Origin: Acidobacteriota bacterium
Lineage (GTDB): Bacteria > Acidobacteriota > UBA4820 > DSQY01
Reading direction: 5' to 3'
Assembly: GCA_037444825.1 (NCBI GenBank)
Contig: JBBILR010000001.1
Location: 11,879 to 75,878 of the forward strand
Length of the DNA stretch: 64,000 nucleotides
A program made the translations under genes and the position numbers. This document shows, piece by piece, positions 4,014-24,777 of this stretch. The notes below the pieces were generated by a model. The model saw only the letters and a program-made list of their open reading frames with translations, was not told the DNA's origin and searched no databases. The stretch's first letter is position 1; the number at the start of each line of letters is the position of its first letter.

Positions 4014-7000
4014 ATGCCCAAACGAATGGTGACCATCGACGGAAACGAGGCCGCGGCCTACGTGGCCCACAAGGTCAACGAGGTCTGCGCCATCTATCCC
4101 ATCACGCCCTCCTCCCCCATGGGGGAGTGGGCCGACCAGTGGTCCTCCGAAGGGAAGAAGAACGTCTGGGGAACGGTGCCGGCCGTGGTGGAGCTCCAGA
4201 GCGAGGGGGGGGCCTCCGGGGCCGTCCACGGAGCCCTCCAGACGGGCGCCCTGACGACCACCTTCACCGCCTCCCAGGGGCTGCTCCTCATGATCCCCAA
4301 CATGTTCAAGATCGCCGGGGAGCTCACCTCCACCGTTTTCCACGTCTCCGCCCGCACGGTGGCCACCCACGCCCTCTCCATCTTCGGCGACCACAGCGAC
4401 GTCATGGCGGTGCGGTCCACCGGCTGGGGCCTGCTCTGCTCCAACTCCGTCCAGGAGATCATGGACTTCGCCCTCATCGCCCAGGCGGCCACCCTCGAGG
4501 GGCGGGTCCCCGTCCTCCACTTCTTCGACGGCTTCCGCTCCTCCCACGAAGTCCAGAAGATCGAGGTCCTCTCCGACGAGACCCTCAAAGCCATGATCGA
4601 CGACGACCTCGTGAGGGCCCACCGGGGGCGCGCCCTCTCCCCCGACCGCCCGGTCCTCCGCGGGACGGCCCAGAACCCCGACGTCTTCTTCCAGGCCCGG
4701 GAGCGGTGCAACCCCTTCTACCAGGCCTTCCCCGCCGTGGTGCAGCGGGCCATGGACAAGTTCGCCTCGCTCACCGGCCGCGCCTACCACCTCTTCGACT
4801 ACGTGGGGGCCCCCGACGCCGAGCGGGTGATCGTCATGATGGGCTCCGGGGCCGAGGCGGCCCACGAGACGGTGGAGTACCTCTGCGCCCGGGGGGAGAA
4901 GGTGGGCCTCCTCAAGGTTCGCCTCTACCGGCCCTTCGACGGCGACGCCTTCCTCAAAGCCCTCCCCTGGACGGTGAGGTCCTTGGCGGTGCTGGACCGC
5001 ACCAAAGAACCCGGGTCCGCCGGCGAGCCCCTCTACGAGGACGTCCTCACCGTCCTCGGCGAGGCGCAGGCGGCGGGAACCCTCCCCTTCCGCTTCCCCA
5101 AAGTGATCGGCGGCCGGTACGGCCTCTCCTCCAAGGAGTTCACCCCGGCCATGGTGAAGGCGGTGCTGGACGAGGCCGGCCGGGAGAAGCCCAAGAACCA
5201 CTTCACGGTGGGGATCGAGGACGACGTCACCCACCTGAGCCTTCCCTACGACCCGAACTTCACCGTCGAGCCCGACGAGGTGATCCGGTGCCTCTTCTAC
5301 GGCCTCGGTTCCGACGGGACCGTGGGCGCCAACAAGAACTCCATCAAGATCATCGGGGAGGAGACGGAGAACTACGCCCAGGGGTACTTCGTCTACGACT
5401 CCAAGAAGTCGGGCTCCATCACCGTGAGCCACCTCCGCTTCGGCCCCCGGCCCATCCGCTCCACCTACCTCGTGAGCCGGGCCAACTTCCTGGCCTGCCA
5501 CGCCTTCGTCTTCCTCGAGAAGTACGACATGCTGCGGGACCTCGTGGAGGGGGGCGTCTTCCTCCTCAACAGCCCCTACGGCCCCGAGGAGGTCTGGGAC
5601 AAGCTCCCGCGGTCGGTCCAGGAGGACCTCATCGCCAAGAAGGCCCGCTTCTTCGTCATCGACGGCTACAAGGTGGCGAGGGAGTCGGGCATGGGCGGCC
5701 GGGTGAACACCATCATGCAGACCTGCTTCTTCGCCATCTCCGGCGTCCTCCCCCGGGAGGAGGCGGTGGCCGCCATCAAGAAGTCCATCGAGAAGACCTA
5801 CGGCAAGAAAGGCGAGGACGTGGTGCGCAAGAACTTCGAGGCGGTGGACCGAACCCTGGCCAACCTCTTCGAGGTGAAGCTCCCCGAACGGGCCACCAGC
5901 GCCTTCGACCGGCCCCCGGTGGTCTCCCCCGAGGCGCCGGAGTACGTCCGGACCACCCTCGCCAAGATCCTCGCCAACCGGGGCGACGAGGTGAAGGTCT
6001 CCGAAATGCCCCCCGACGGGACCTTCCCCACCGCCACCGCCCGCTGGGAGAAGCGCAACATCGCCCTGGAGATCCCCGTCTGGGACGAGAAGATCTGCAT
6101 CCAGTGCGGCAAGTGCGCCCTGGTCTGCCCCCACGCGGCCATTCGCATCAAGGCCTACGACCCGCTCCACCTGAAGGGGGCGCCGAGGACCTTCAAGTCC
6201 ATGGACTACAAGGGCCAGGAGTTCAAGGGGTGGAAGTACACCGTCCAGGTGGCCCCCGAGGACTGCACCGGGTGCGGGATTTGCGCCGCCGTCTGCCCCG
6301 CCAAGGACAAGAGCAACGTCCGCCACAAGGCGCTGGACATGGCCGACCAGATCCCCCTGCGGGAACCGGAGCGGGAGAACTTCGCCTTCTTCCTCTCCCT
6401 GCCCGAGGTGGACCGGGCCTCCGTGAAGGTGGACACCGTCAAGGGCTCCCAGTTCCTGGAGCCCCTCTTCGAGTTCTCCGGCGCCTGCGCCGGGTGCGGC
6501 GAGACCCCGTACGTGAAGCTCCTCTCCCAGCTCTTCGGCGACCGGGCCATCATCGCCAACGCCACGGGCTGTTCGTCCATCTACGGCGGGAACCTCCCCA
6601 CCACCCCCTGGGCGGTGAACCGGGAGGGCCGGGGCCCTGCCTGGTCCAACTCCCTCTTCGAGGACAACGCGGAGTTCGGCTACGGCTTCCGCCTGACCCT
6701 CGACAAGCACAACGAGTACGCGCGGGAGCTCCTCCGGAAACTGGCCGGGCGGCTGGGGGACGACCTGGTCACGGGGCTTCTGGAAGCCCACCAGAAGGAC
6801 GAGGCGGGGATCGCCGCCCAGCGCGCCCGGGTGGCCGAACTCAAGAAGCGCCTCGAGGGCATGGACGACCCCGACGCGAAGAACCTCCTCTCCGTGGCCG
6901 ACGCCCTGGTGAAGAAGAGCGTCTGGATCGTCGGCGGCGACGGTTGGGCCTACGACATCGGGTACGGCGGCCTCGACCACGTCCTGGCCTCCGGCCGGAA

Positions 7001-7601
7001 CGTCAACGTCCTCGTCTTGGACACGGAGGTCTACTCCAACACCGGCGGCCAGTGCTCCAAGGCCACCCCCATGGGGGCGGTGGCGAAGTTCGCCGCTTCG
7101 GGAAAGCCCCTGGGCAAGAAGGACCTGGGCATGCTGGCCCTCACCTACGGCAACATCTACGTCGCGCGGGTGGCCATGGGGGCCAGCGACGCCCAGACGG
7201 TGAAGGCCTTCCTGGAGGCCGAAGCCTACGACGGCCCCTCCCTCATCATCGCTTACAGCCACTGCATCGCCCACGGCTTCGACCTCGTGGAGGGAATGGC
7301 CCACCAGAAGGACGCGGTGGAGAGCGGCGCCTGGCCCCTCTTCCGCTACAACCCCGAGCTGCTGGCCCAGGGGAAGAACCCGCTCAAGCTGGACTCCAAA
7401 CCGCCCAGGATCCGCTACGCCGACTACGCCCTCAAGGAGACCCGATTCCGGATGCTCACCAAGAGCCACCCCGAGAACGCCCAGCGCCTCCTGAAGGCCG
7501 CCGACGCGGAGATCCTCTGGCGCTGGAAGATGTACGAGCAGCTGGCCGCCATGGCCGTCGGCGGGGCCGAGACGCAGCCCGAGGGCGCTACGAAGGAGTG
7601 A
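4014..7601 (+). CDS. nifJ: pyruvate:ferredoxin (flavodoxin) oxidoreductase, single-polypeptide PFOR
   Basis: 1195 aa. It starts [41 protein letters not shown] and contains ferredoxin-type [12 protein letters not shown] and [12 protein letters not shown] motifs plus the TPP domain [12 protein letters not shown]. Confidence 0.95.
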
Positions 7602-10039: not shown

Positions 10040-11440
10040 TCAGGCGTGGAGGTAGAGCTCGAACTCCCTCGGGTGGGGTCTCTCCGCCAGGTCCCGCGCC
10101 TCCTGCCGCTTGAGGGCGATCCAGGCCTCGATGAGGTCCTCGGTGAAGACTCCCCCCACAAGAAGAAAGTCGTGGTCCCGCTCCAGGGCGTCCAGGGCCC
10201 AGTTGAGGGAGGAGGGCAGGGCCGGAATGGCGCGCAGCTCCTCCTCCGGCATGGAGTAGAGGTCCTTGGCCAGCGGGACGCCGGGGTCCAGCTTCCGCCG
10301 GATCCCGTCCAGTCCGGCCATCAACATGGCCGCCACCGCCAGGTGGCTGTTGCAGGTGGCGTCGGGGGGCCGGTACTCGATCCGGACGCTCTGCGGGTCC
10401 TTGGCGTAGCCGGGGATGCGGATGGCGGCGGTCCGGTTTCCCACGGAGTAGGCCAGACGCACCGGCGCCTCGAAGCCGGGCACCAGCCGCTTGTAGGAGT
10501 TGGTGCTGGGGTTGGTGAAGGCGGCCAGCGCCGCCCCGTGCGCCAGGAGCCCGCCCACGTAGTGGAGGCCCACCGGCGAGAGGGGCGCCTTGCCCTTGGG
10601 GTCGAAGAAGGCCGACCGGCGCCCGTCGGTGAGGTACTGGTGGAAGTGGAGGCCGCTCCCCGCCTCCCCGTAGAGGGGCTTGGGCATGAAGGTGGCCACC
10701 ACCCCCTGGGAGAGGGCCACGTTCCGCACGATCCACTTGGCCAGTGCCACGGCGTCGGCCGCCTTGAGCAGGGGAAGGAAGTTCAGCTCGATCTCCACCT
10801 GGCCGGCGGGCCCCACCTCGTGGTGGTGGTACTTCACGGGGATCCCCACCTCGGCGAGCCGGCGGCACATGGCGGCCCTGAGGTCCTCGAATCGGTCCGC
10901 CGGGGCCGCGGCGTGGTACCCCTTCCGCCGCCCTTCGTGCTCCGGAATCCGGGGATTCCCGCCCGGGTCGCCGGCCTCCCGGGAGAAGATCTTGTAGCCG
11001 CTGTGGCCGGGGCGGCCGTAGACCCGGACCTCGTCGAAGAGGTAGAACTCCAGCTCGGGAAGCCAGAGGCTGTGCTCGCCCCGCCGCGTCCGGGCGAGGT
11101 GCCGCTCGGCCTTGCGGGCCACGTGGCGGGGGTCCCGGGAGAACCCCTCCCGGGCGTCCACGTCCACGAGGTCTCCCAGGAAGCAGAGGGTGGGCTCCTC
11201 GGCGAAGGGGTGCCGGAAGGAGGCGGAGAGGTCCGGTTTGAGGACCATGTCGCCGGACTTGACCTTCCGAAAGCCCGTCACCGACGAGCCGTCCACGCCC
11301 ACGCCACCCTCGGCCAGCGCGGGGGTGAAGCGCTCCGCGGGAAGGGAGAGGTGGTGCCAGGCGCCGAGGAGGTCGGTGTACATGAGGTCCACGAAGGCGA
11401 TGCCGCCGGCCTGGATGTCGTCGAAGAGGTCTCGTTTCAT
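10040..11440 (-). CDS. glnA: glutamine synthetase type I
   Basis: From M104 of the track ORF: MKRDLFDDIQAGGIAFVDLMYTDLLGAWHHLS... runs 466 aa with GS catalytic motifs (KPLYGEAGSGLHFHQ). GGGGAGGA lies 8 nt upstream of the ATG at 11440. Confidence 0.9.
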   Translation of the reverse strand: MKRDLFDDIQAGGIAFVDLMYTDLLGAWHHLSLPAERFTPALAEGGVGVDGSSVTGFRKVKSGDMVLKPDLSASFRHPFAEEPTLCFLGDLVDVDAREGFSRDPRHVARKAERHLARTRRGEHSLWLPELEFYLFDEVRVYGRPGHSGYKIFSREAGDPGGNPRIPEHEGRRKGYHAAAPADRFEDLRAAMCRRLAEVGIPVKYHHHEVGPAGQVEIELNFLPLLKAADAVALAKWIVRNVALSQGVVATFMPKPLYGEAGSGLHFHQYLTDGRRSAFFDPKGKAPLSPVGLHYVGGLLAHGAALAAFTNPSTNSYKRLVPGFEAPVRLAYSVGNRTAAIRIPGYAKDPQSVRIEYRPPDATCNSHLAVAAMLMAGLDGIRRKLDPGVPLAKDLYSMPEEELRAIPALPSSLNWALDALERDHDFLLVGGVFTEDLIEAWIALKRQEARDLAERPHPREFELYLHA

Positions 11441-11534
11441 GGGCGCGGTCCTCCCCTGGCAGGGTAGGCGCGACGGGGTCCACTCTTCAAGGCCGGAGGG
11501 GAGGCCCGCGACCCGCCCGGGTGAGGTGCCCCGT

Positions 11535-12782
11535 TCAGCCTTCGTCGTCCAGACGGTGGACGCCGGAGGAGGAAGGGGAGGGGGAGCGGATGGGCTGGGA
11601 ATCGGAGGGCAGGAGATTCCGCACGCCCGATTCGGCGGGGGAAACGGGGTGGGCCCCCGAATCGGAGAGCCCCGGAGGGGCGGGCTCTTTTTTCCGAGCC
11701 GCCCGCCGGGCTCGGGCCAGCACCGTGAAGAGGTAGACGGCCAGGGCACTCCCCGCCGCGAAGAGGACCAGGAAAAGGGAAAGGGCCCCCCACTGGGGGC
11801 GGAAGGCCGGCGGGGGCTCCGCCGCCGCCCGGAGAAGGGCGTCCCGGACCACGTCCCTCAGGATCACCATGGAGAGCAGGGTGAGCAGGAGGCAGGCGGC
11901 GGAGGCGCGCAGGAAGGCGGAGGCTTTCACGGAGTTGATGCCCATGAGGGAGAGGACCAGCGCCGCGAGGCCGAAGAGGAGGCCCGCGGCCAACGCGGAG
12001 GTCCCCAGAAGGTTCCCCCCCATGGCGGCCCGGATTCCCTCGTCGGGCAGCGCCAGGAGCCACCAAGTCCCGGCGGCGAAGTTCACCAGCGTCGCCCCCG
12101 CGAACCAGGTGATGCCGCTACGGTACTGCCAGCGGCCCCGTTCGGGTTCCAGGGGGAGCCGCCGGGCTCCACGGATGGCCACCACCAGCCCCGTCAGGGC
12201 CACCGAGGCGAGGAAGAAGTGGAGGAAGCGGGGCAGGACGGTGAAGTCGGCGAGGTTGAACTGGAAGCCGCCGGGGTGGCTCAGGTACTTGGCGGGGAAG
12301 CGCTCCGGGTCGGAGAGGAGGGCGAAGAGGTTGGCCTGGGTGAAGCCGACGTAGCCCAGCCCCAGAAAGGCCCCCAGGGCGACCCCGGCGGCCCCCTTCC
12401 CCCCCTCTCGAAGGCGCCTCTCCAGAAAGTAGAGGAGGCCGTAGGCGGCCAGGAGCACGGGGATCACGAGCAAAACGGGCGTTCCCAGGAGGATGGAGGC
12501 CGTGTAGAAAAGGCGTCCGTAGAGGACCTGGACGAAGAGCAGGGGGGCCACACCGAAGAGAATGGCGAAGGCCGTGAGCGACGGAAGGTAGGAGGCGAGA
12601 AGGGCCGCCATTTCGCGGTGCTTTTCTTGCCCTTTGAAGAGGTAGACCGCGGTGAGGAAGGCCCCCCCCCAGACGGCGTTCATGAAGAGCAGGTGGAGGG
12701 TGAAGGTGGCGTACAGCAGCACCTTGACCAGCCAGAGGGGGCCGGGGACGGGAAGGTCGGGCGGGGCGGCGGGACCGATCAT
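11535..12782 (-). CDS. polytopic membrane protein, partner of the CydA-like subunit (CydB-position subunit, no clear CydB signature)
   Basis: MIGPAAPPDLPVPGPLWLVKVLLYATFTLHLLFMNAVWGGAFL... is 416 aa and very hydrophobic. Its ATG overlaps the upstream stop as ATGA (12779-12782). Confidence 0.6.
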   Translation of the reverse strand: MIGPAAPPDLPVPGPLWLVKVLLYATFTLHLLFMNAVWGGAFLTAVYLFKGQEKHREMAALLASYLPSLTAFAILFGVAPLLFVQVLYGRLFYTASILLGTPVLLVIPVLLAAYGLLYFLERRLREGGKGAAGVALGAFLGLGYVGFTQANLFALLSDPERFPAKYLSHPGGFQFNLADFTVLPRFLHFFLASVALTGLVVAIRGARRLPLEPERGRWQYRSGITWFAGATLVNFAAGTWWLLALPDEGIRAAMGGNLLGTSALAAGLLFGLAALVLSLMGINSVKASAFLRASAACLLLTLLSMVILRDVVRDALLRAAAEPPPAFRPQWGALSLFLVLFAAGSALAVYLFTVLARARRAARKKEPAPPGLSDSGAHPVSPAESGVRNLLPSDSQPIRSPSPSSSGVHRLDDEG

Positions 12783-14296
12783 GGCTTGCCCCTCCGGGAA
12801 ACCGTCGTGAGGTACTCCGCCAGCATTCTCCGTTCCTCGTCGGTGCCCGTCCAGGGGGGCATGGCCTCGCTCATGGCGTCCAGGGCGGTGAGGAGGTCGG
12901 AGGCCTCCTCCGCCGAGGAGGAGGCGAAGGCCGCCGAAAGGGGCCGGAAGGGGCCGTGGAGGGTGTGGCAGGCGGCGCACCGCCGGCGAAAGGCCTCTTC
13001 GCCGGTGGCGGAGGGCGTGGGGGCCGACCCTTGGAGAAGGAAGCGCGCCAGCGCGCGGGCCTCCCCGGCGTTGCCCGGAAACGGGGGCATGGGCCCCCGA
13101 AGGGCGTCGGCGTGGAGAACCAGGGCGGCCACGTACGGTTCTTCCAGACCCCGGAGGCGGGGCCTCAAGGCCCGGGGCCCGCCGTCGAGGCCGTGGCAGG
13201 GGCCGCAGGCTCTCAGAAAGAGCGCCCTGCCCGCCCGGGGGTCCTCGGGGGTCCAGGCTTTGCCTCCGTCGGCGGTGTAGGGGGAGGCGGCCAGCATCCC
13301 CTTGTCCCTCAAGACGCCGAGTTCCGGCAGGGAAACGTGGTTGCCGTACAGGTAGCCGGGGATGAGCCAGGGCTTGCGGAGGCCTTCCCGGCCCCACTCG
13401 AAGGAGGCCACCGCCAGAAAGGCGAAGAGGAAGAGGCCGATGGCGGACCCCCGGCCGAAGGTCCGGGGCCGCCGAAGCACCAGGAGGGGGGTGAGGACCG
13501 CGAGGTGGAGAAGGGCGGCCGCCAGCAGAAGGGCCGCGTGGAGGCTGGAGGGGGCGGCCGTGAGGATCGCCCGCCGGTCGGGCGGCAGGAACCGGTAGAA
13601 GGCGAAAATCGCCGGGGGTAGCAGGAGGGAGGCGGTCAGGACGAAGCCGGCGGCGGACCTCCCCACCTCCGCCTTGAGGACTCGGTCGGAGTCCCGGGAC
13701 ACGGCCAGCAGGGCGTAGGCTCCCCCCAACAGGAGGCAGAGAAGGGTTCTCACCGCCAGGGACGGGAGAAAGTTGGCGTTGAAGACCGCCGGCAGGAGCG
13801 CCCCCGTCTCCAGCCAGCGGCCGGGGGTCAGCTGAAAGGCCAGGATGGCGTCGATGGCCACCAGGGAGAGAAAGGCCGAGGCGAAGTAGATCCAGCCCAC
13901 GGCGAGGTGGCTCCGGCGGGGAAGGACCTCCCACCCCTTCACGTAGACCAGGATGGAGGCGATCTCCACCAGGAAGAAGACCCACTCCACCGCCCAGACC
14001 CAGACGAAGGTCCGGATGAGGGCGAATGTCCCCTCCGGGCTGATGAGGCCGATGACGAACCAGATCCCCACCCCCGTGACCGCCCCCACGGTCAGGGTGA
14101 GAAGGGCGAAGAACCGGGAGAAGCGGACCAGGAACTCCCGGAGGGCGGGGTCGCCCAGGCGGTGGGCGCGGTGTTCCCCCAGGACGAGGAAGAGGCCGCC
14201 CCCGATGGCGAACTGGGAGACGAAGACGTGCAGGACCGCCACGGCGGCGATGATCCACCGAACGCCGACGGCCGGGTCCCAGACGGGAAAGGTCAC
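12779..14296 (-). CDS. cytochrome bd-type quinol oxidase subunit I-like membrane domain (truncated CydA) fused to a C-terminal di-haem c-type cytochrome domain
   Basis: MTFPVWDPAVGVRWIIAAVAVLHVFVSQFAIGGGLFLVL resembles the CydA N-terminus. The C-terminal soluble region carries two CxxCH motifs (CGPCHGLDG, CAACHTLHG). It starts at GTG with GGGAGGG 4 nt upstream. Confidence 0.65.
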   Translation of the reverse strand: MTFPVWDPAVGVRWIIAAVAVLHVFVSQFAIGGGLFLVLGEHRAHRLGDPALREFLVRFSRFFALLTLTVGAVTGVGIWFVIGLISPEGTFALIRTFVWVWAVEWVFFLVEIASILVYVKGWEVLPRRSHLAVGWIYFASAFLSLVAIDAILAFQLTPGRWLETGALLPAVFNANFLPSLAVRTLLCLLLGGAYALLAVSRDSDRVLKAEVGRSAAGFVLTASLLLPPAIFAFYRFLPPDRRAILTAAPSSLHAALLLAAALLHLAVLTPLLVLRRPRTFGRGSAIGLFLFAFLAVASFEWGREGLRKPWLIPGYLYGNHVSLPELGVLRDKGMLAASPYTADGGKAWTPEDPRAGRALFLRACGPCHGLDGGPRALRPRLRGLEEPYVAALVLHADALRGPMPPFPGNAGEARALARFLLQGSAPTPSATGEEAFRRRCAACHTLHGPFRPLSAAFASSSAEEASDLLTALDAMSEAMPPWTGTDEERRMLAEYLTTVSRRGKP

Positions 14297-14324
14297 CTTC
14301 GGCCCTCCCAGGTCCCCAGGGGAC

Positions 14325-16663: not shown

Positions 16664-17305
16664 TCAGGGGGCCGTGCGGTCCTTGAAGAGTTTCTTCAGC
16701 TTGGCCAGCTTGGGGGAGATGACCAGGGCGCAGTAGGGGGCGTCCGGGTGCTTCCGGAAGTAATCGCGGTGGTAGTCCTCCGCGGGGTAGAAGGCTCGGA
16801 GGGGGACCACCTCCGTCACCACCGGCCGGGGGTAGGTCCCGGAAGCCTCCACGCTCCGGATGACCTTTTCCGCGGTCAGGCGCTGGCCCTCGTTCCGAAA
16901 CAGGACGATGGAGCGGTACTGGGTCCCCACGTCGGCCCCCTGGCGGTCCTTGGTGGTGGGGTCGTGGAGGGCGAAGAAGACCTCCAGAAGAGCCTCCAGG
17001 GGTAGCACCTGGGGGTCGAAGACCACCTTCACCACCTCCGCGTGCCCCGTCCTGCCGGTGCAGACCTGCTCGTAGGCGGGGTTGGGGACCGTCCCCCCGG
17101 CGTAGCCGGGCGTCACCGACACCACGCCCCTCAACTCCTGGAAGATGGCCTCCAGGCACCAGAAGCAGCCGCCGCCCAGCACGATCGTTTCCGTCGCCAC
17201 CGTCCGCCCCCCGTGGGAAGGCCCTTGCGCCCGCGGTTGGAATTCCCTTCCGGCCGCGGCGGCGAGGGCGAGAAGCGCGAAAAGAGCCAGGACATGCCTG
17301 CCCAA
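16664..17305 (-). CDS. msrA: peptide methionine sulfoxide reductase A (probably exported; start approximate)
   Basis: The core is ETIVLGGGCFWCLEAIFQELRGVVSVTPGYAGG...HDPTTKDRQGADVGTQYRS. It is preceded by the signal-like GRHVLALFALLALAAAAG. There is no in-frame ATG, so I place the start at a TTG at 17305. The upstream part of the track ORF is low-complexity junk. Confidence 0.75.
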   Translation of the reverse strand: MGRHVLALFALLALAAAAGREFQPRAQGPSHGGRTVATETIVLGGGCFWCLEAIFQELRGVVSVTPGYAGGTVPNPAYEQVCTGRTGHAEVVKVVFDPQVLPLEALLEVFFALHDPTTKDRQGADVGTQYRSIVLFRNEGQRLTAEKVIRSVEASGTYPRPVVTEVVPLRAFYPAEDYHRDYFRKHPDAPYCALVISPKLAKLKKLFKDRTAP

Positions 17306-17780
17306 AACGATTCCAGAAATCTCCTGGAAAACCCTGCGGGACGGGGGCTCCGCCGCTGCCGCGGCGGGGGAGGCCTGGACCGGACGCGTCCGCGAGGGCG
17401 CGTCCTCGCCTCGGTCCTTGGCCTCCCGGCGCCCTTCGGGCGCCCCGTCCCGCTTGCGCATTCTTTTCCTGCCCGCCCCCCACTCTCTTGGGTTGAGGCC
17501 GCAAGTCCCGGACCTTGGGCTTTGTCGGACTTCGGCGTCCGAATCCTCAACGTACCTCAAGTACGCCTCCGGTTCGGCCGCCTCGTCCTTCGCGCCCAAG
17601 GCCCAATCCTGCGGCCTGCCTTTCCCCCTCCGCTCCGCTCCGGGGGAAAGGCGGAACCTGGCAAGAATTCTGGACGGTCGTGGAGCCAGGACTTTCCTCA
17701 TGAGCCCTGGAACGCCGGGGCGTCGGCCCTTCTTCCCGCCGCGGGGGAGGGGGAGGGCTCGGGGCCCTCCCCCGCGGGGG

Positions 17781-20700
17781 TCAGGAGCAGCCGAGGCTGT
17801 TGCCGCAGTTGAGGCACTTGTAGCAGGAGCCGTTCCGCACGGTGATGTGGCCGCAGATGTTGCAGAAGGGGGCGTCGCCCATGAGGCCCGCCAGGTGGGA
17901 GGAGAGGGAGCCGGAGGCGGCCTTGTACACCGGCACGGCGGTGGCGGGGCCCTTCAGCGTCTTTTCGGCGGCCTCCACCTCGCGGGTGCTGGCGGTGGGG
18001 GAGGTGAGGGTCTTCTCCGCCTCCGCCTTTTCCACTTCCTCGGGTTTCACCTGGACGAAGTCGGTCCGGCCCAGGTACTCCATCCCCAGGACCCGGAAGA
18101 TGTAGTCGATGACCGACGTCGCATACTTGATGTTGGGGTGGTCGGTCACCGGGCCCTGGGGCTCGAAGCGGGTGAAGGTGAAGCAGTCCACGTACTCGTC
18201 CAGGGGGACGCCGTACTGGAGGCCCAGGGAGACGGCGATGGCGAAGCAGTTCATGAGGGAGCGGAAGGCGGCCCCCTCCTTGTGCATGTCGATGAAGATC
18301 TCCCCCAGGCGGCCGTCCTCGTACTCGCCGGTCCTCAGGTAGACCTTCTGGCCGCCGACGCGGGCCTCCTGGGTGAAGCCCGACCGCTTCTTGGGGAGGC
18401 GCCTCCTCCTCAGGGGGGTGGGCTGGGCGTCGGGGAGCGCGGCGGGGGCCTTTTCGGGGGCGGCGCTCTTTTGGGTGGAGGCGTCGGAGAGGGGCTGGGT
18501 GACCTTGGAGCCGTCGCGGTACACCGCCAGGGCCTTCAGCCCCCGCTTCCACGCCTCCACGTAGATCCGCTCGATCTCCTCCGGCGTGATGGAGGAGGGA
18601 AGGTTCACCGTCTTGCTGATGGCGCCGGAAAGGAAGGGCTGGGCGGCAGCCATCATCTTCACGTGGCCCAGGGGGGCGATGAACCTCCGGCCGCGCTTTC
18701 CGCACCGGTTGGCGCAGTCGAAGACCGGCAGGTGCTCCTCTTTCAGATAGGGGGCCCCCTCGATGGTCATGTGGCCGCAGGCCACCAGGGAGGCCTCCTC
18801 GATCTGGGCGGGGGTGAAGCCCAAGGCGGAGAGGAGGTTGAAGCCGGGCTTCGCCGCCTCTTCCAGGGAGAGGCCCAGGCGCGTGAAGAGCTCCTCGCCC
18901 AGGACGTGGAGGCTGAAGGCCTGGGGCAGGTCCATGACCCGGGGGATCTGGCTCTCCGCCCGGGCCACCTCCTCCTCGGTGAGGCCCTTGGCGAGGAGGG
19001 CGGCGGGGTTCACGTGGGGGGTTCCCTCCAGCTTGCCGGTGCCGAGGATGTACGTGAGGATCTCCTGGATCTGGGCCGGGGGGTACCCGAGGTTCTCCAG
19101 CGCCCGCTCCACCGACTGGTTGACGATCTTGAAGTAGCCGCCCCCTGCCAGCTTCTTGAACTTCACCAGGGAGAAGTCCGGCTCGATGCCGGTGGTGTCG
19201 CAGTCCATGAGAAGGCCGATGGTCCCCGTGGGCGCGAGGACGGTGGTCTGGGCGTTCCGGAAGCCGTACTGGCGTCCGAAGACTAGGGCGTCGTCCCAGG
19301 CCTGGCGGCTGGCCAGGGCCAGGTACTCGGGCAGGAGGGAGGCCTCCAGGCGGAGGCTGGCGTCCCTGTGGAGGTTGATGACCTCCAGCATGGACTCCCG
19401 GTTGGGGAAGTACCCCGGGAAGGGCCCCTTCCGGCGGGCCAGCAGGGCGGAGACGGTGTAGGCGTGGCCCGTCATGAGGCTCGTCAGCGCCCCGCACCAG
19501 GCGAAGGCCCTGGGGCTGTCGTAGGGGATCCCCTGGACCATGAGGAGGGTGCCGAGGTTGGCGTAGCCCAGCCCCAGGGGCCGGAAGTTGTGGCTGTTGC
19601 GGGCGATGGGCTCGGTGGGGTAGGAGGAGAGGTCCACCAGGATCTCCTGGGCCACGATGAAGATGCCCACGGCGTGGCGGAAGCCCTCCACGTCGAAGGT
19701 GCCGTCCTCCCGGAGGAACTTCATGAGGTTGAGGCTGGCGAGGTTGCAGGCGGAGTCGTCGAGGAACATGTACTCCGAGCAGGGGTTGCTGGCGTTGATG
19801 CGGTCGGTGGCCTTGCAGGTGTGCCACTTGTTGATGGTGGAATCGAACTGGAGGCCGGGGTCCCCGCACTCCCAGGCCGCCTCGGCGATCTGGCGCATGA
19901 TGGCCCGGGCCTTCAGGGTGTGGGCCTTCTGCCCGGTGGTGCGGTAGACGGTGGTCCACTCCCCGTCACGCTCGTAGGCCTCCATGAAGGCGTCGGTGAC
20001 GCGCACGGAGTTGTTGGCGTTCTGCCCCGCCACCGTGTGGACGGCCTCGTCCACGTCCACCCCCATCTGGGCCAGCTTCCGGGCCTTGGCCTCCTCCCTC
20101 CGCTTCCAGTTGATGAAGTCCAGGATCTCCGGATGGTCGACGTCCAGGATCACCATCTTGGCGGCCCGCCGGGTGGTCCCCCCGGACTTGGTGGCGCCGG
20201 CCGCCCGGTCCAGCACTTCCAGGAAGGACATGAGGCCCGAGGAGGTTCCCCCGCCGGAGAGCTTCTCCTCCCGCGAGCGGAGGCGGGAGAAGTTGGAGCC
20301 GGTGCCCGAACCGTACTTGAAGAGGCGGGCCTCGTTCTTGGCCAGCTGGAAGATGCTCATGAGGTCGTCGTCCACGCTCTGGATGAAGCAGGCCGAGCAC
20401 TGGGGGTGCTGGTAGGCGTTGGCCGTCTCCTCGATCCGGTCGGTCTGGGGGTTCCAGAAGTAGGCCCCGCCGGAGCCCTCGATGCCGTACTCGTGCCAGA
20501 GGCCCAGGTTGAACCAGACGGGGGAGTTGAAGGCCCCCTTCTGCGTCACGAGAAGGTGGGAGAGCTCGGCCTCGAAGGCCTCGGCCTCCTCCGGGGTCTC
20601 GAAGTAGCCGCCCAGGCGCTCCCCCTCCACCCGGAGGGTGTGGGCGATGCGCCGCACCACCTGCCGGATGGAGGTTTCGTGGCCGGTCCCCGGCACGCCG

Positions 20701-21020
20701 GCCTTCCGGAAGTACTTGCTGATGAGGATGTCGGAGGCGAGCTGGGACCACTCCTCCGGCACCTCGGCGTTCTCCAGGGCGAAGACCACCGAGCCGTCCA
20801 CGTTCAGGATGCGGCAGGACCGCCGGGCGTACCGGATCTCGTCCAAGGGGTCCACCCCGGCCCTGGTGAAGTGCCGTTCCAGACGGAAGGGGTGGAGGGC
20901 TTCGGGGGTGAGTTCCGGCGCGGCCGTTCCCGGGGGCGGGCCCGCGGGGAGGGATTCGGGGGCGGGGTTCTTGCCTTTGGCGGTTCCGGCGGGCGGGGCG
21001 GCGTTCTTGGTGGGTTCCAT
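17781..21020 (-). CDS. nrdJ: class II (adenosylcobalamin-dependent) ribonucleoside-diphosphate reductase
   Basis: 1079 aa with class II RNR motifs, and a C-terminal [26 protein letters not shown] zinc ribbon. Confidence 0.9.
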
Positions 21021-21261: not shown

Positions 21262-24135
21262 CTAGGACCCGGCTTCGGTGAGGTAGCCGACGGCGGCGTC
21301 CTGCTCCCCGTCCATGACCACCTCCAGCCGAAGGCCCGGCGCCGCCTGGTCCAGGTCCACGACCTTGAGGACCTCCTCCAGGTAGGCGTACTCCGGCAGC
21401 AGGGCGCTCAGGGCGTTGGGGCTCTTCGAGAAGAACTCCTCCCGGAAAACCACCCCCTCGTCGTCCGGGTAGAGGGCGAGGTACCGGATCCGCGATTCCA
21501 CCAGGTCTTGGAAGAAGTGGGTGCCGAAGGAAAGGTCGGGGACGTAGTCCCCCTTGCGGCGGGCCACCTCCACCAGCATGGCGGTGTGGCTGATGTCCGA
21601 GTAGGTGACGCGAACCCCCAGGAGGATGTCCCCCCGGCTGCCCCAGCGGCCCGGCCCGATGAGCACGAAAGAGCGTGGAGGCAGGAGGGCGTTGAGCCGC
21701 CCCACCGCCTCCCCCACGGCCAGCATGTCCGTCTCGGAGGAGAGCCGGGCGTAGGCCGGCCCGTCCACGTACACGACGTAGCGAAGGTCCCGGATCTGCG
21801 CGGTGGTGACGTACTTCTTCGCCGTGAAGAGGACCCGTTCCGGCGGCAGGGACTCGGGGAGGGGGACCCGGACCTCGCTCCCGGCGCTGCTCTGCGGGCG
21901 GCACTGCAGCATGTACAGGTCCTTCCCGTCGTGGGCGAACTCCACGTCCACCGGCGTCCCCATGGCCTTCTGCAGGACCTCCAGGACCCGGCGCATCTGC
22001 TGGAGAAAGGGGGTCCCCTCGAAGAGCCCGGCGAAGGTGATCACGTACTCCGAGGGGGTGAGGGCGAGAAACCGCCCCGCGGGCCTCCGCAGCATTCCGT
22101 CGGAATGGACCGAGACCACCAGCTCCAGCAGGGGGAACTCCTCCCCGGCCTCCTGGAGGAGGGCCTCGAAGGGGACCGACTCGAAGCGGCCCGTCTCCAT
22201 GTTGATGGCGTCCACGAAGCGCTGGGCGTACCGGATGGCCTGCTTCACGTCGGCGTTGACCCTCAGGCCCGGCTGGCCCGGGCTCACCAGCGTCGGGTAG
22301 TCGTCGCCCACCCGGTCCACCGCCCGGGTGCCCAGCCCCGCCACGATGCGGATCACCCCGTCCTCCCGCCGGAGCCGCGGCGACCACCGGAACTCGTTGT
22401 GGCTGAAGGCCACCCCGGCGAAGGCCGGGAGGAAGTAGCGCCCCACCCGTGTCCCCACCACCCGCTGGATGAGGACCCCCATCTCCTCCATGAAATCCAA
22501 AAGGCCCCTCTCCCGCCGGTATTGGATGGGGTCCGGGCCCAGGATGGAGGCGTAGACCTCGGCGATGGCGTCTTCCAGGGCGCCGAGGCGCTCCTCCTCG
22601 GAGCCCTGGTTGGCCAGGAAGAGGCTCCGGTACTTTCCCGAGAAGGCCGTGCCCTCGCTGTCCTCCAGGAGGCTGGACGAGCGGACGATGAGCGGCCCCT
22701 CCCCCAGGTCCTGGAGGGCCACCCGGAGCTGCCGTGAAAGGTCCGGCGGGAAGAAGGAGTGTTTGAAGACCTGCTCCAGGTAGGGGTAGCTCCGGCGCAC
22801 CTCCTGGGGGGGGCTGTACTTGAAGGACTGGGTGTCCTCCAGGGAGTTGTACTTCACGAAGTCGAAGAGGCCGTCGGAGGCGAGGAACCAGGCCTTGGGG
22901 ACGCGGATCCCCTCCAGCAGGGGGTCCCCCTTCCCCTCGGCTCTCAGGATCTGCTCGGCCAGGAGCAACCCCGAGGCCTTCCCGCCCAGCTTGCCCGCGC
23001 ACTTGGGGGGACCCACCACCCGCCTCAGGAGGGCGGCGAAGACGGGGATGTCCATGTACTTTTTGGCGACGGCGATGAAGGGCAGGCGGTCGGTGAGGAA
23101 GCGGCGGGTGAGGGCCACCCGGAGGTTCAGGGCGTCGGAGGGGGAGAGGGCCTCGTCCCCCTGGCGGGAGGCGCGGTCGATCCTCTCCACGATGTCGGCG
23201 ATGTCGGAGAGGGTGAGGTCCCGCTGCTCGGTGGCCAGCGCCAGGAACCCCACCCGGTCCTGCCGGATCCACTTCTTCACCAGGGCGGTGATCTCGTCGT
23301 GGGGCAGGATGACCGGGGCCACGGCCAACAGGTCCTCGAAGACCCCCTCGAAGGCCGAGACGTCCCGCTTGCGCAGGGGCTGGTTGGAGCCCCGGGACTC
23401 CCGCTCCCGCTCGGCGGCGCTGCCTGGGTCGAAGCGCTCGATGAGGCGGTGGATTCCCGGCGCCCCCAGGTTGGACAGGTGGTTCATGAACTTCCTTAGG
23501 AGCCGCTTCCAGAGGTTGACGTCGGTCTCCCTCAAAAGGTCCAGGATGACCTGCCACTCCGGGCGGGCGGCCTGCCCCGCACCGGGGCCGCCGGGCGGCG
23601 CCTCGGCCATGCGGGCCACCTTCAGGGCCGCCACCCGAAGGAGCTGTTTTTCCTCCAGGAGGAAGGGCCGGTCCTTCCGGAGGGTCTCCGGCAGGGAGAG
23701 GTAGGCCGCCTCCAGGGAGCCGTACCCCCCGGAGGAGAGGGGGATGGGCTCCCGCAGGTTCCACGGCGTCTCCTGGAAGTCCGGCGGGGCGAAGACCTCC
23801 CGCCCCAGGGTCAGCCGGACGCGGAGCCGCTCCGGAAACCGAAAGCCCGAGGGGAGCAGGTCCACCACCGCCCTGGCGGCGGCCCGAGGATCCTGCGGGG
23901 GCTCGTCGGTCACCGCCGAGAGCCGGCTGAGGCACAGAAGCTCCTTGCTTCCCGCCACCGCCTCGGGAAGCGCCTTCCGATCGTCCCTGTCCGCTCTGGC
24001 CAACGTATTCCTCCTCCATCCATCATGCCACGGCCCGGTGGCGGAAGGAAAAGCCCCCCTTGCCCCGGCCGCGGCGGGGGTTCCGCCGGCGGGAGGGGTG
24101 AGGTAGGATGCCTTCAGAAGCGAAAGCGGCGTCAT
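21262..24135 (-). CDS. large multidomain protein with central PEP/pyruvate-binding (PPDK_N-type ATP-grasp) domain; function unknown; start uncertain
   Basis: KCAGKLGGKASGLLLAEQ plus a downstream ATP-grasp-like region matches the PEP synthase / PPDK N-terminal domain family. About 450 aa N-terminal and about 250 aa C-terminal have no recognisable signature. The first in-frame ATG (24135) faces the divergent gene's start at 24154, so the true start may be a GTG/TTG further downstream. Confidence 0.6.
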   Translation of the reverse strand: MTPLSLLKASYLTPPAGGTPAAAGARGAFPSATGPWHDGWRRNTLARADRDDRKALPEAVAGSKELLCLSRLSAVTDEPPQDPRAAARAVVDLLPSGFRFPERLRVRLTLGREVFAPPDFQETPWNLREPIPLSSGGYGSLEAAYLSLPETLRKDRPFLLEEKQLLRVAALKVARMAEAPPGGPGAGQAARPEWQVILDLLRETDVNLWKRLLRKFMNHLSNLGAPGIHRLIERFDPGSAAERERESRGSNQPLRKRDVSAFEGVFEDLLAVAPVILPHDEITALVKKWIRQDRVGFLALATEQRDLTLSDIADIVERIDRASRQGDEALSPSDALNLRVALTRRFLTDRLPFIAVAKKYMDIPVFAALLRRVVGPPKCAGKLGGKASGLLLAEQILRAEGKGDPLLEGIRVPKAWFLASDGLFDFVKYNSLEDTQSFKYSPPQEVRRSYPYLEQVFKHSFFPPDLSRQLRVALQDLGEGPLIVRSSSLLEDSEGTAFSGKYRSLFLANQGSEEERLGALEDAIAEVYASILGPDPIQYRRERGLLDFMEEMGVLIQRVVGTRVGRYFLPAFAGVAFSHNEFRWSPRLRREDGVIRIVAGLGTRAVDRVGDDYPTLVSPGQPGLRVNADVKQAIRYAQRFVDAINMETGRFESVPFEALLQEAGEEFPLLELVVSVHSDGMLRRPAGRFLALTPSEYVITFAGLFEGTPFLQQMRRVLEVLQKAMGTPVDVEFAHDGKDLYMLQCRPQSSAGSEVRVPLPESLPPERVLFTAKKYVTTAQIRDLRYVVYVDGPAYARLSSETDMLAVGEAVGRLNALLPPRSFVLIGPGRWGSRGDILLGVRVTYSDISHTAMLVEVARRKGDYVPDLSFGTHFFQDLVESRIRYLALYPDDEGVVFREEFFSKSPNALSALLPEYAYLEEVLKVVDLDQAAPGLRLEVVMDGEQDAAVGYLTEAGS

Positions 24136-24153
24136 CCTGCCGGGGAGGTTCCC

Positions 24154-24777
24154 ATGGGGGCGGTGGAGCCGGAAGGGGAAAGCCGGGGGTTCTGGGGAAA
24201 GGTCTGGGAAAGGTTTTGGTGGGTCTTCGCCCTCGCTCTCGTCGGCGGCGTGGCGGGGGTGTACAAGCTTTTCGGCGGCGTGGCGCTCCTGAAGCTCTGG
24301 GCCTCCCTCTTCGCCGGCCTGGGCGCGGCGGTCATGGTCTACGGCGGGCGGGCTTGGAGGCTCGCCTCCCGAAGCCCGGAGTGGTTCCCGGCGCAGGCGC
24401 GGGTGCTCCGTTCCGAGGTGAGGACCGAAAGGAACTCCTCCTTCAGCCGCGACGGGATCAACCCCAGCTACCAGACCGTCTCCCACTACCCGGAGGTGGA
24501 GTACGAGTACGAGGTGGAGGGAGAGAAGAGAAGGTCCGATAGGGTCCTCCTCGTGCGGGTGAACTACTCCGCCGAGGAGGCGGCCGCCACGGTGGCGAAG
24601 TATCCCACAGGAGCCGCCGTTACCGCCTGGTACGACCCCCGGGATCCCGACCGGGTGGTCTTGGAGCCGGGTCTTCGGGGGGCGAGGTCCAAGTACGCCA
24701 TCCCGCTGCTCGTCGGCCTCGTTTTCATGCTCTTTGGCATTTCCACGTGGGTGGTGCTGGCGTTGCTGGGGCGTTGA
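24154..24777 (+). CDS. DUF3592-family membrane protein
   Basis: MGAVEPEGESRGFWGKVWERFWWVFALALVGG...RVNYSAEEAAATVAKYPTGAAVTAWYDPRDPDRVVLEP...LLVGLVFMLFGISTWVV has two TM segments flanking a DUF3592-like soluble domain. GGGAGG lies 6 nt upstream. Confidence 0.6.
   Translation: MGAVEPEGESRGFWGKVWERFWWVFALALVGGVAGVYKLFGGVALLKLWASLFAGLGAAVMVYGGRAWRLASRSPEWFPAQARVLRSEVRTERNSSFSRDGINPSYQTVSHYPEVEYEYEVEGEKRRSDRVLLVRVNYSAEEAAATVAKYPTGAAVTAWYDPRDPDRVVLEPGLRGARSKYAIPLLVGLVFMLFGISTWVVLALLGR

Follow-up and report, generated by a model that had tools for sequence, protein, structure and literature searches.

To our knowledge, all biochemistry and structures of cytochrome bd oxidases come from quinol-oxidising enzymes. 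A 2021 survey split the wider bd superfamily into the branches qOR, OR-C and OR-N (Murali, Gennis and Hemp 2021, bioRxiv 10.1101/2021.01.16.426971; also ISME J). In that account, OR-C enzymes have no quinol site, conserve H19, E99 and E107, and are encoded next to a paralogue termed OR-C1b; they are widespread in Acidobacteria and Desulfobacterota, carry up to eight haems in Desulfovibrionia, and were proposed to take their electrons from cytochrome c as the likely donor (bioRxiv 10.1101/2021.01.16.426971). Here we analyse a 64,000-nucleotide (nt) stretch of DNA from an Acidobacteriota bacterium (contig JBBILR010000001.1; hereafter the window) and, within it, two overlapping genes on the minus strand. 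Gene 1 encodes a membrane domain resembling CydA with a di-haem cytochrome c attached at its C-terminal end, and gene 2 encodes a second membrane protein. The pair very probably belongs to the OR-C1a/OR-C1b family, as a typical member and not a new kind of system. Based on sequence conservation and structural models, we put at about 0.6 the probability that the two proteins form a heterodimeric oxygen reductase that depends on cytochrome c, not on quinol.

Gene 1 is recognisable as a bd-type subunit both in sequence and in predicted fold. Pfam places Cyt_bd_oxida_I (PF01654) on residues 13-179 with an expect value (E) of 8.8e-10 and 38.1 bits against a cut-off of 26.2, the CydA match that a first-pass annotation of this DNA had expected of the N-terminal domain, and it places the cbb3-type cytochrome c family PF13442 on two stretches with E 3.2e-17. 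In a profile search of the Protein Data Bank (PDB), a full-length profile of 40 gene 1 family sequences matched 5doq_A at E 2.7e-7; a profile of the N-terminal domain built from 16 sequences, which is less sensitive than the full one, gave a marginal match to 9r2g_A (E 0.031). We built an AlphaFold2 model of the product on 40 homologues (predicted local distance difference test score, pLDDT, 90.4; predicted template modelling score, pTM, 0.85). The model has eight long membrane helices, at residues 12-47, 50-85, 87-124, 127-156, 176-199, 205-235, 239-274 and 282-307; two small helical domains of the cytochrome c type come after them. When the model was compared to the PDB with Foldseek, the best 20 matches were all cytochrome bd subunits, with CydA chains first and CydB chains after them; the CydA matches had E from 3.6e-7 to 1.5e-4 and template modelling scores up to 0.65, over at most about 460 alignment columns.

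We aligned the gene 1 family profile to E. coli CydA (from NC_000913.3, with the numbering verified at 16 landmark residues) and found eight equivalent residues at the active site, in the proton channel and in the last membrane helix (Table 1). These are present in 120-121 of 121 sequences: H23 occurs in 120, the remaining sequence being gapped there, and E104 is Asp in one. Y118 is also invariant or nearly so (120-121 of 121). E304, R307 and P309 belong to an ExxRKP(Y/W/F) motif that ends transmembrane helix 8 (TM8), and E304 is likely the equivalent of E. coli CydA E445. The parts of CydA that handle quinol look different. No His or Met between residues 156 and 299 is conserved at 50% or more in the family alignment, V182 takes the position of the haem b558 ligand H186, the loop between TM6 and TM7 has 14 residues where that of E. 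coli has roughly 150, and there is no TM9. Because no His or Met is conserved in that stretch and the TM6-TM7 loop is so short, gene 1 has neither a b558 site nor a Q-loop. As judged from conservation, the O2-reducing haem pocket and the cytoplasmic proton channel are intact, and a di-haem cytochrome c has taken the place of the quinol module of b558 and Q-loop. Adjoining the lost His186 position, R183 (nt 13748-13750), within or at the start of predicted TM5, is invariant in 121 of 121 sequences.

These results refine the initial description of gene 1. Its outline of a CydA-like domain, a di-haem cytochrome c and a membrane partner holds on the evidence of Pfam, the Foldseek fold and the conserved active-site and proton-channel residues. 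The name quinol oxidase is a misnomer, since gene 1 has no Q-loop and neither of the two haem b558 ligands, a loss by which the OR-C family is defined; of the haem b ligands and Q-loop that had been singled out for checking, only the H19-type and, probably, the E445-type ligand are kept. The membrane domain had been called a CydA truncated at about 340 residues. It is indeed shortened, but the cut is not arbitrary: TM1 to TM8 are kept up to the ExxR(K/Q)PW motif, and only the Q-loop and TM9 are missing.

The C-terminal part of gene 1 contains the two CxxCH motifs that had been noticed at the outset. The first is CGPCH (residues 364-368, nt 13193-13207), with axial Met403 inside an MPPF motif, and the second is CAACH (residues 440-444, nt 12965-12979), with axial Met479; both motifs and both methionines are invariant in 120 of 120 homologues. 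The C-terminal 160 residues align with QcrC and CcoP across both haem domains in the PDB profile search (E 1e-7 to 3e-5), and both are di-haem subunits through which electrons travel from a donor to a terminal oxidase. The N-terminus of CydA is periplasmic, and since gene 1 would share this orientation and has eight helices, its C-terminus should also be periplasmic. Consistent with this, the predicted cytoplasmic loops (1, 3, 5 and 7) carry 15 Lys and Arg residues, while the predicted periplasmic parts, which are the N-terminus and loops 2, 4 and 6, carry 5. The di-haem domain is thus predicted to sit in the periplasm, as had been supposed, and this topology argues against a cytoplasmic location of the CxxCH motifs.

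Gene 2 lies in the cydB position, and one could read it as an ordinary haem-free CydB, or as an unrelated membrane protein, with the fusion being a canonical CydAB to which a cytochrome c was added. Its structural model does match CydB chains, at E 1.2e-3 to 5e-2. Against this, the protein has no Pfam match at E<=1, PF02322 (CydB) included, which bears out the first remark that the partner lacks obvious CydB signatures; its family profile returned only noise from PDB sequences and scored negatively against E. coli CydB. We compared a profile of 40 gene 2 family sequences with the gene 1 family profile by hhalign and obtained an alignment with a probability of 96.3% and E 1.8e-9 over 286 columns, spanning TM1 to TM8. 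It pairs H30 of gene 2 with H23 of gene 1, and R309-D310-x-x-R313 with R303-E304-x-x-R307, and E. coli CydB has no histidine at the H30 position. The AlphaFold2 model of gene 2 (pLDDT 89.6, pTM 0.85) has nine membrane helices, the ninth at residues 331-365. Its best Foldseek matches are bd subunits only, led by a CydA chain at E 5.9e-6, and every CydA chain but 7nkz_A ranks above the best CydB chain. Gene 1 in turn fails the tests of a canonical CydA, with no b558 ligands, Q-loop or TM9, and we consider an ordinary CydB beside a decorated CydA very unlikely.

Conservation within the gene 2 family points in the same direction as the profile alignment. H30 is present in 105 of 105 homologues, R185, R309 and R313 are invariant, and D310 occurs in 80 of 106 sequences; the invariant polar residues in predicted membrane helices are T26, H30, Q85, Y88, Y114, Y118, R185, R309 and R313. 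The glutamate pair has no equivalent, as the part of TM3 opposite E104 and E111 consists of a gap and hydrophobic residues and no Glu is among the invariant positions, and CxxCH is found in 0 of 105 homologues. From these alignments and the model, gene 2 is a divergent CydA paralogue in the subunit II position that has kept the H19-equivalent histidine and lost the glutamate pair. The partner that was at first an uncharacterised membrane protein can accordingly be described, from hhalign and Foldseek, as a divergent CydA paralogue of the OR-C1b type.

It is possible, although rather unlikely, that gene 2 binds one or more haems of its own, because the H19-equivalent histidine is kept and R309, R313 and D310 align with R303, R307 and E304, of which R307 and E304 correspond to R448 and E445 of E. 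coli. The complex would then hold redox cofactors in both subunits, two haems c and up to four haems b or d, and gene 2 could provide, for example, a second catalytic site, an electron-storage site or a transmembrane electron path. We know of no characterised bd oxidase with redox cofactors in both subunits. Two further features of the protein stand apart from these comparisons. R185 (nt 12228-12230), within or at the start of predicted TM5, is invariant in 106 of 106 sequences and does not align with R183 of gene 1. The tail at residues 366-415 (nt 11535-11684) is predicted to be disordered, basic close to TM9 and rich in Pro and Ser further on; it occurs only in the closest relatives (about 400-427 residues), and distant homologues stop at about residue 365, just past TM9.

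The family assignment can be checked residue by residue. For its OR-C1a reference, Table S6 of the 2021 survey lists H24, E105, E112, S145, H131, L153, Y119, Y121, V77, W80 and F183 (bioRxiv 10.1101/2021.01.16.426971). At the same positions gene 1 has H23, E104, E111, S144, H130, L152, Y118, K120, V76, W79 and V182, so that eight of the 11 are identical at a constant offset of -1 and a ninth is the required non-histidine. Gene 1 further resembles OR-C1a in its eight helices and C-terminal periplasmic haem c, in keeping H19, E99, E107, H126 and S140, in the short spacing of the two glutamates (7 apart) with a Tyr at +7, and in having no H186, M393 or Q-loop. Gene 2 resembles OR-C1b as an adjacent CydA paralogue without the glutamate pair, of a family present in Acidobacteriota. 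In Table S7, a 'Cytochrome c' of Thermoanaerobaculum aquaticum is OR-C1a, and the gene next to it by IMG gene number, for a 'hypothetical protein' without haem, is OR-C1b (bioRxiv 10.1101/2021.01.16.426971), the same arrangement as in gene 1 and gene 2.

Several details differ from the published lists. The second Tyr of the reference (Y121) is Lys in gene 1. Gene 2 has nine helices in the AlphaFold2 model where the survey gives eight, maybe from a different predictor. This subclade has exactly two c haems, whereas the survey gives one for most Acidobacteria and up to eight in Desulfovibrionia. The invariant E304 in ExxRKP(Y/W/F) aligns with E445-x-x-R448-Q-P-W, for which the survey's reference row has no equivalent. 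Judged from sequence alignments, what our analysis would add to the survey is exactly two c haems with a haem-c-free partner in every examined sequence, an invariant TM8 Glu that aligns with E445, and, with the help of the model, a partner that has a His and an Arg/Asp/Arg set at CydA haem-ligand positions and nine predicted helices. Beyond this detail on the partner subunit and the TM8 Glu, we do not extend the survey. The guess that the locus belongs to a biochemically uncharacterised clade of bd-like cytochrome c fusions was sound: the clade is OR-C, catalogued in 2021, and in the literature to 2026 we found OR-C cited as a phylogenetic class only and biochemistry or a structure for none of its members.

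The whole gene 1 architecture occurs in at least 673 protein clusters and is not a product of chance. Relatives occur in at least 568 species-representative genomes, among them Acidobacteriota, Verrucomicrobiota, Zixibacteria, Eisenbacteria, Latescibacterota, Ignavibacteriales, Calditrichia, Kiritimatiellales and Nitrospirota. Those with a name that come closest are from metagenome-assembled genomes of an Acidobacteriota (74% identity) and a Thermoanaerobaculia (63%). We inspected 80 loci and found a gene 2 homologue directly downstream on the same strand in 77. Two of the three exceptions stop at a contig edge, and the third is Fervidibacter sacchari. With this pairing, dozens of columns invariant across phyla, both reading frames intact and a GC content at third codon positions of 0.92 in gene 1, it is extremely unlikely that the pair is a decaying or non-functional remnant.

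The one exception with full context is on the chromosome of Candidatus Fervidibacter sacchari PD1 (locus L080:7980-10349), where a one-haem OR-C1a homologue of 444 residues has no OR-C1b gene downstream; the gene that follows seems to encode a soluble protein of another family. Either the partner gene may lie at another place in that genome, or the one-haem form may work alone. A HMMER search with the gene 1 membrane domain alone found 712 clusters at 50% identity (E<=1e-3), matching over residues 1 to about 338. These relatives have between 0 and 11 CxxCH motifs, most often 1, 2 or 8. One eight-haem relative, P0256, matches the membrane domain over its full length (37% identity, E 2e-63), and its own relatives include Desulfobacterota proteins from Desulfonema, Desulfobacterales, Desulfobulbaceae and Ca. 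Magnetomorum, in line with the 2021 survey's account of OR-C; these matches give indirect support for placing gene 1 in the OR-C clade.

Together our results suggest a route for electrons through a cytochrome c-dependent oxygen reductase. The di-haem domain of gene 1 would be reduced by a c-type cytochrome in the periplasm, which could be soluble or tethered to the membrane. From the c haems, which would stand in for the missing b558, electrons would pass directly to two high-spin haems (b595/d-type or b/b) that sit among TM1-4 and TM8 of gene 1, with H23 and E304 as the predicted ligands. O2 would be reduced to water at this haem pair using cytoplasmic protons delivered through the E104/E111/H130/S144 channel, and gene 2 would serve as a CydB-like scaffold. 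Because the electrons would arrive from the periplasmic side and the protons from the cytoplasm, a membrane potential would form during turnover without pumping. The enzyme may serve to scavenge low O2 for an anaerobic or microaerophilic host, and not to sustain high-flux aerobic respiration, since the window encodes a pyruvate:ferredoxin oxidoreductase and a class II ribonucleotide reductase.

Several observations weigh against this reading. We found no purification or assay of any OR-C member in the literature. Clustering of the open reading frames (ORFs) at the 80 loci yielded no conserved neighbour beyond the pair, donor cytochrome and accessory genes included, and returned only antisense shadow ORFs; at the locus itself no candidate donor cytochrome is encoded beside the pair. 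The equation of E304 with E445 comes from a short TM8 motif alignment whose score is weak by itself, and Table S6 gives no E445 equivalent for its Desulfovibrio reference (bioRxiv 10.1101/2021.01.16.426971). The hosts include many anaerobes, so the substrate might also be something else than O2.

This last point leads to an alternative in which the same scaffold works on another oxidant, such as H2O2, NO or a different small molecule, and would give an anaerobe a peroxidase or detoxifying reductase supplied with electrons from the periplasm. Side activities of canonical bd oxidases include peroxidase-like and NO-related ones, Desulfobacterota and Thermoanaerobaculia-like lineages commonly have OR-C, and, besides the pyruvate:ferredoxin oxidoreductase and the B12-dependent class II ribonucleotide reductase, an MsrA is encoded nearby. 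However, E104, E111, H130 and S144 are invariant or nearly so, which matches the four-electron O2 reduction of characterised bd enzymes, strict anaerobes too keep canonical bd oxidases for O2 removal, and we found no peroxide- or NO-specific signature. We regard a different oxidant as unlikely.

The direction of electron flow offers another alternative, already raised in the first-pass annotation. Here the site for a quinol or other membrane donor would be in another place, such as gene 2, and electrons would leave through the c haems to periplasmic or extracellular acceptors, making the pair a quinol:cytochrome c or metal-reduction conduit. Relatives with up to 8-11 c haems do resemble electron conduits, and gene 2 keeps invariant polar residues in its predicted membrane helices. 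On the other side, gene 1 lacks a quinol-site signature, with neither Q-loop nor b558 ligands, neither Pfam nor the PDB sequence search matched gene 2 to a quinol-binding family, and a pure electron exporter would have no reason to conserve O2-site ligands together with a cytoplasmic proton channel. Reversed flow therefore seems quite improbable, and we retain the oxygen reductase fed by cytochrome c as the preferred reading.

The reading frames are well defined. Both ORFs lie on the minus strand where the first-pass annotation had put them, with the second starting on an ATGA; its length for gene 2, 416 residues, counts the stop codon, and the product is 415 residues long. As read from the window, gene 1 starts with GTG and encodes 505 residues, and gene 2 starts with ATG. 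At the junction, CC-ATGA-TC, the gene 2 ATG (12782-12780) overlaps the gene 1 TGA (12781-12779). Gene 1 begins MNYPVW here and MTFPVW in homologues, and both starts appear sound because homologues of both proteins begin at the same residues. A scan for promoters and terminators found zero promoters, and the terminator-like sites were weak and all within coding sequence. An antisense ORF at 11112..13280 (+, 722 residues) was rejected as a high-GC shadow of the gene pair; other long ORFs antisense to the pair are likewise shadows of DNA with about 70% GC, not genes, and their seemingly conserved counterparts in other genomes group together in clusters.

Table 1. Features of the gene pair, with window positions, and residues of gene 1 equivalent to E. 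coli CydA residues
Feature	Window positions	Strand	E. coli CydA equivalent	Role in CydA	Evidence
Gene 1, OR-C1a-type subunit I, CydA-like domain with eight predicted helices, then di-haem cytochrome c	12779..14296	-			ORF, Pfam, AlphaFold2, Foldseek
Gene 1 membrane domain, TM1-TM8, residues ~1-310	13367..14296	-			AlphaFold2 helices, E. coli CydA mapping, conservation in 121 sequences
Gene 1 first cytochrome c domain, residues ~345-425	13022..13264	-			Pfam, PDB profile matches, conservation
Gene 1 second cytochrome c domain, residues ~426-505	12782..13021	-			Pfam, PDB profile matches, conservation
ATGA overlap, gene 2 start codon on gene 1 stop codon	12779..12782	-			Junction sequence
Gene 2, OR-C1b-type subunit II, divergent CydA paralogue with nine predicted helices	11535..12782	-			hhalign, AlphaFold2, Foldseek, conservation
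Ribosome-binding site GGGAGG, 7 nt upstream of gene 1 GTG	14304..14309	-			Upstream sequence
Gene 1 H23			H19	Haem ligand	
Gene 1 E104			E99	Proton channel	
Gene 1 E111			E107	Proton channel	
Gene 1 H130			H126	Proton channel	
Gene 1 S144			S140	Proton channel	
Gene 1 E304			E445 (likely)	Haem ligand	
Gene 1 R307			R448	Conserved TM8 motif (ExxRQPW)	
Gene 1 P309			P450	Conserved TM8 motif (ExxRQPW)	

In addition to the residues in Table 1, the membrane domain of gene 1 is marked by Y118, R183 and the full E300/R303/E304/R307/P309 motif.

The pair is flanked on the same strand by an acyl-CoA dehydrogenase gene upstream and glnA downstream, both as first described. Since no other neighbour is conserved, the pair appears to be a self-contained module and its placement between these two genes incidental. 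The gap from gene 2 to glnA is 76 nt, which leaves no room for a CydX-like small ORF downstream of gene 2. Further neighbours are ThiG, MsrA, the class II ribonucleotide reductase, an M20 peptidase, a dihydroorotate dehydrogenase-like protein and the pyruvate:ferredoxin oxidoreductase. The last of these is a single-chain pyruvate:ferredoxin/flavodoxin oxidoreductase of 1195 residues (4014-7601, +) and the ribonucleotide reductase is a class II (B12) enzyme (17781-21020); together they point to an anaerobic or microaerophilic host. In the MsrA ORF (16664-17701, -), the PMSR domain covers residues 172-324 of 345, and the first ~170 residues are rich in Arg, Pro and Ala; the start may have been called too far upstream, or this stretch may be a leader for the membrane or for secretion. 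A 1074-residue protein (21262-24486, -) has PPDK_N (pyruvate phosphate dikinase ATP-binding) at residues 499-872 as its sole domain, with no Pfam match at E<=1e-5 over its first ~500 residues. A 668-residue protein (971-2977, -) begins with a response-regulator receiver domain, and its other 550 residues gave no identification at E<=1e-5.

The OR-C branch spans hundreds of species in many phyla, many of them anaerobes. If the preferred reading is correct, the branch would add to the haem-copper oxidases of the aa3 and cbb3 types a third route by which cytochrome c can deliver electrons to O2, one that needs no copper. This would bear on how anaerobes and microaerophiles cope with O2 and on the scoring of oxygen metabolism in environmental genomes. 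The locus described here is a clean and compact representative: it has just two genes and two c haems, and none of the key residues is lost.

Among described systems, the di-haem subunits CcoP, of the cbb3 oxidase, and QcrC, of the actinobacterial bc1-aa3 supercomplex, resemble the C-terminus of gene 1 and have the relay role proposed for it, but in gene 1 the di-haem domain is fused to a bd-type catalytic subunit and does not accompany a haem-copper oxidase partner. Canonical CydAB (qOR1-3, with structures from E. coli, Geobacillus and Mycobacterium) has the same fold as both subunits here, and it shares its active-site ligands and proton-channel residues with gene 1, so the O2 chemistry is probably the same. 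The pair departs from it in that gene 1 has c-type haems and no haem b558, Q-loop/quinol site or TM9, and in place of CydB it has as subunit II a paralogue of CydA type that carries the histidine equivalent to H19; as noted above, a CydX-like ORF would not fit downstream. In the last respect but one the nearest parallel is CydAA' (qOR4a/qOR4b) of Caldivirga maquilingensis, whose subunit II is also a CydA paralogue that has kept H19 and lost the glutamate pair, and which is the only 'a/b-type' bd enzyme with demonstrated O2 reduction. Unlike the pair described here, CydAA' is quinol-dependent, archaeal and without a haem c.

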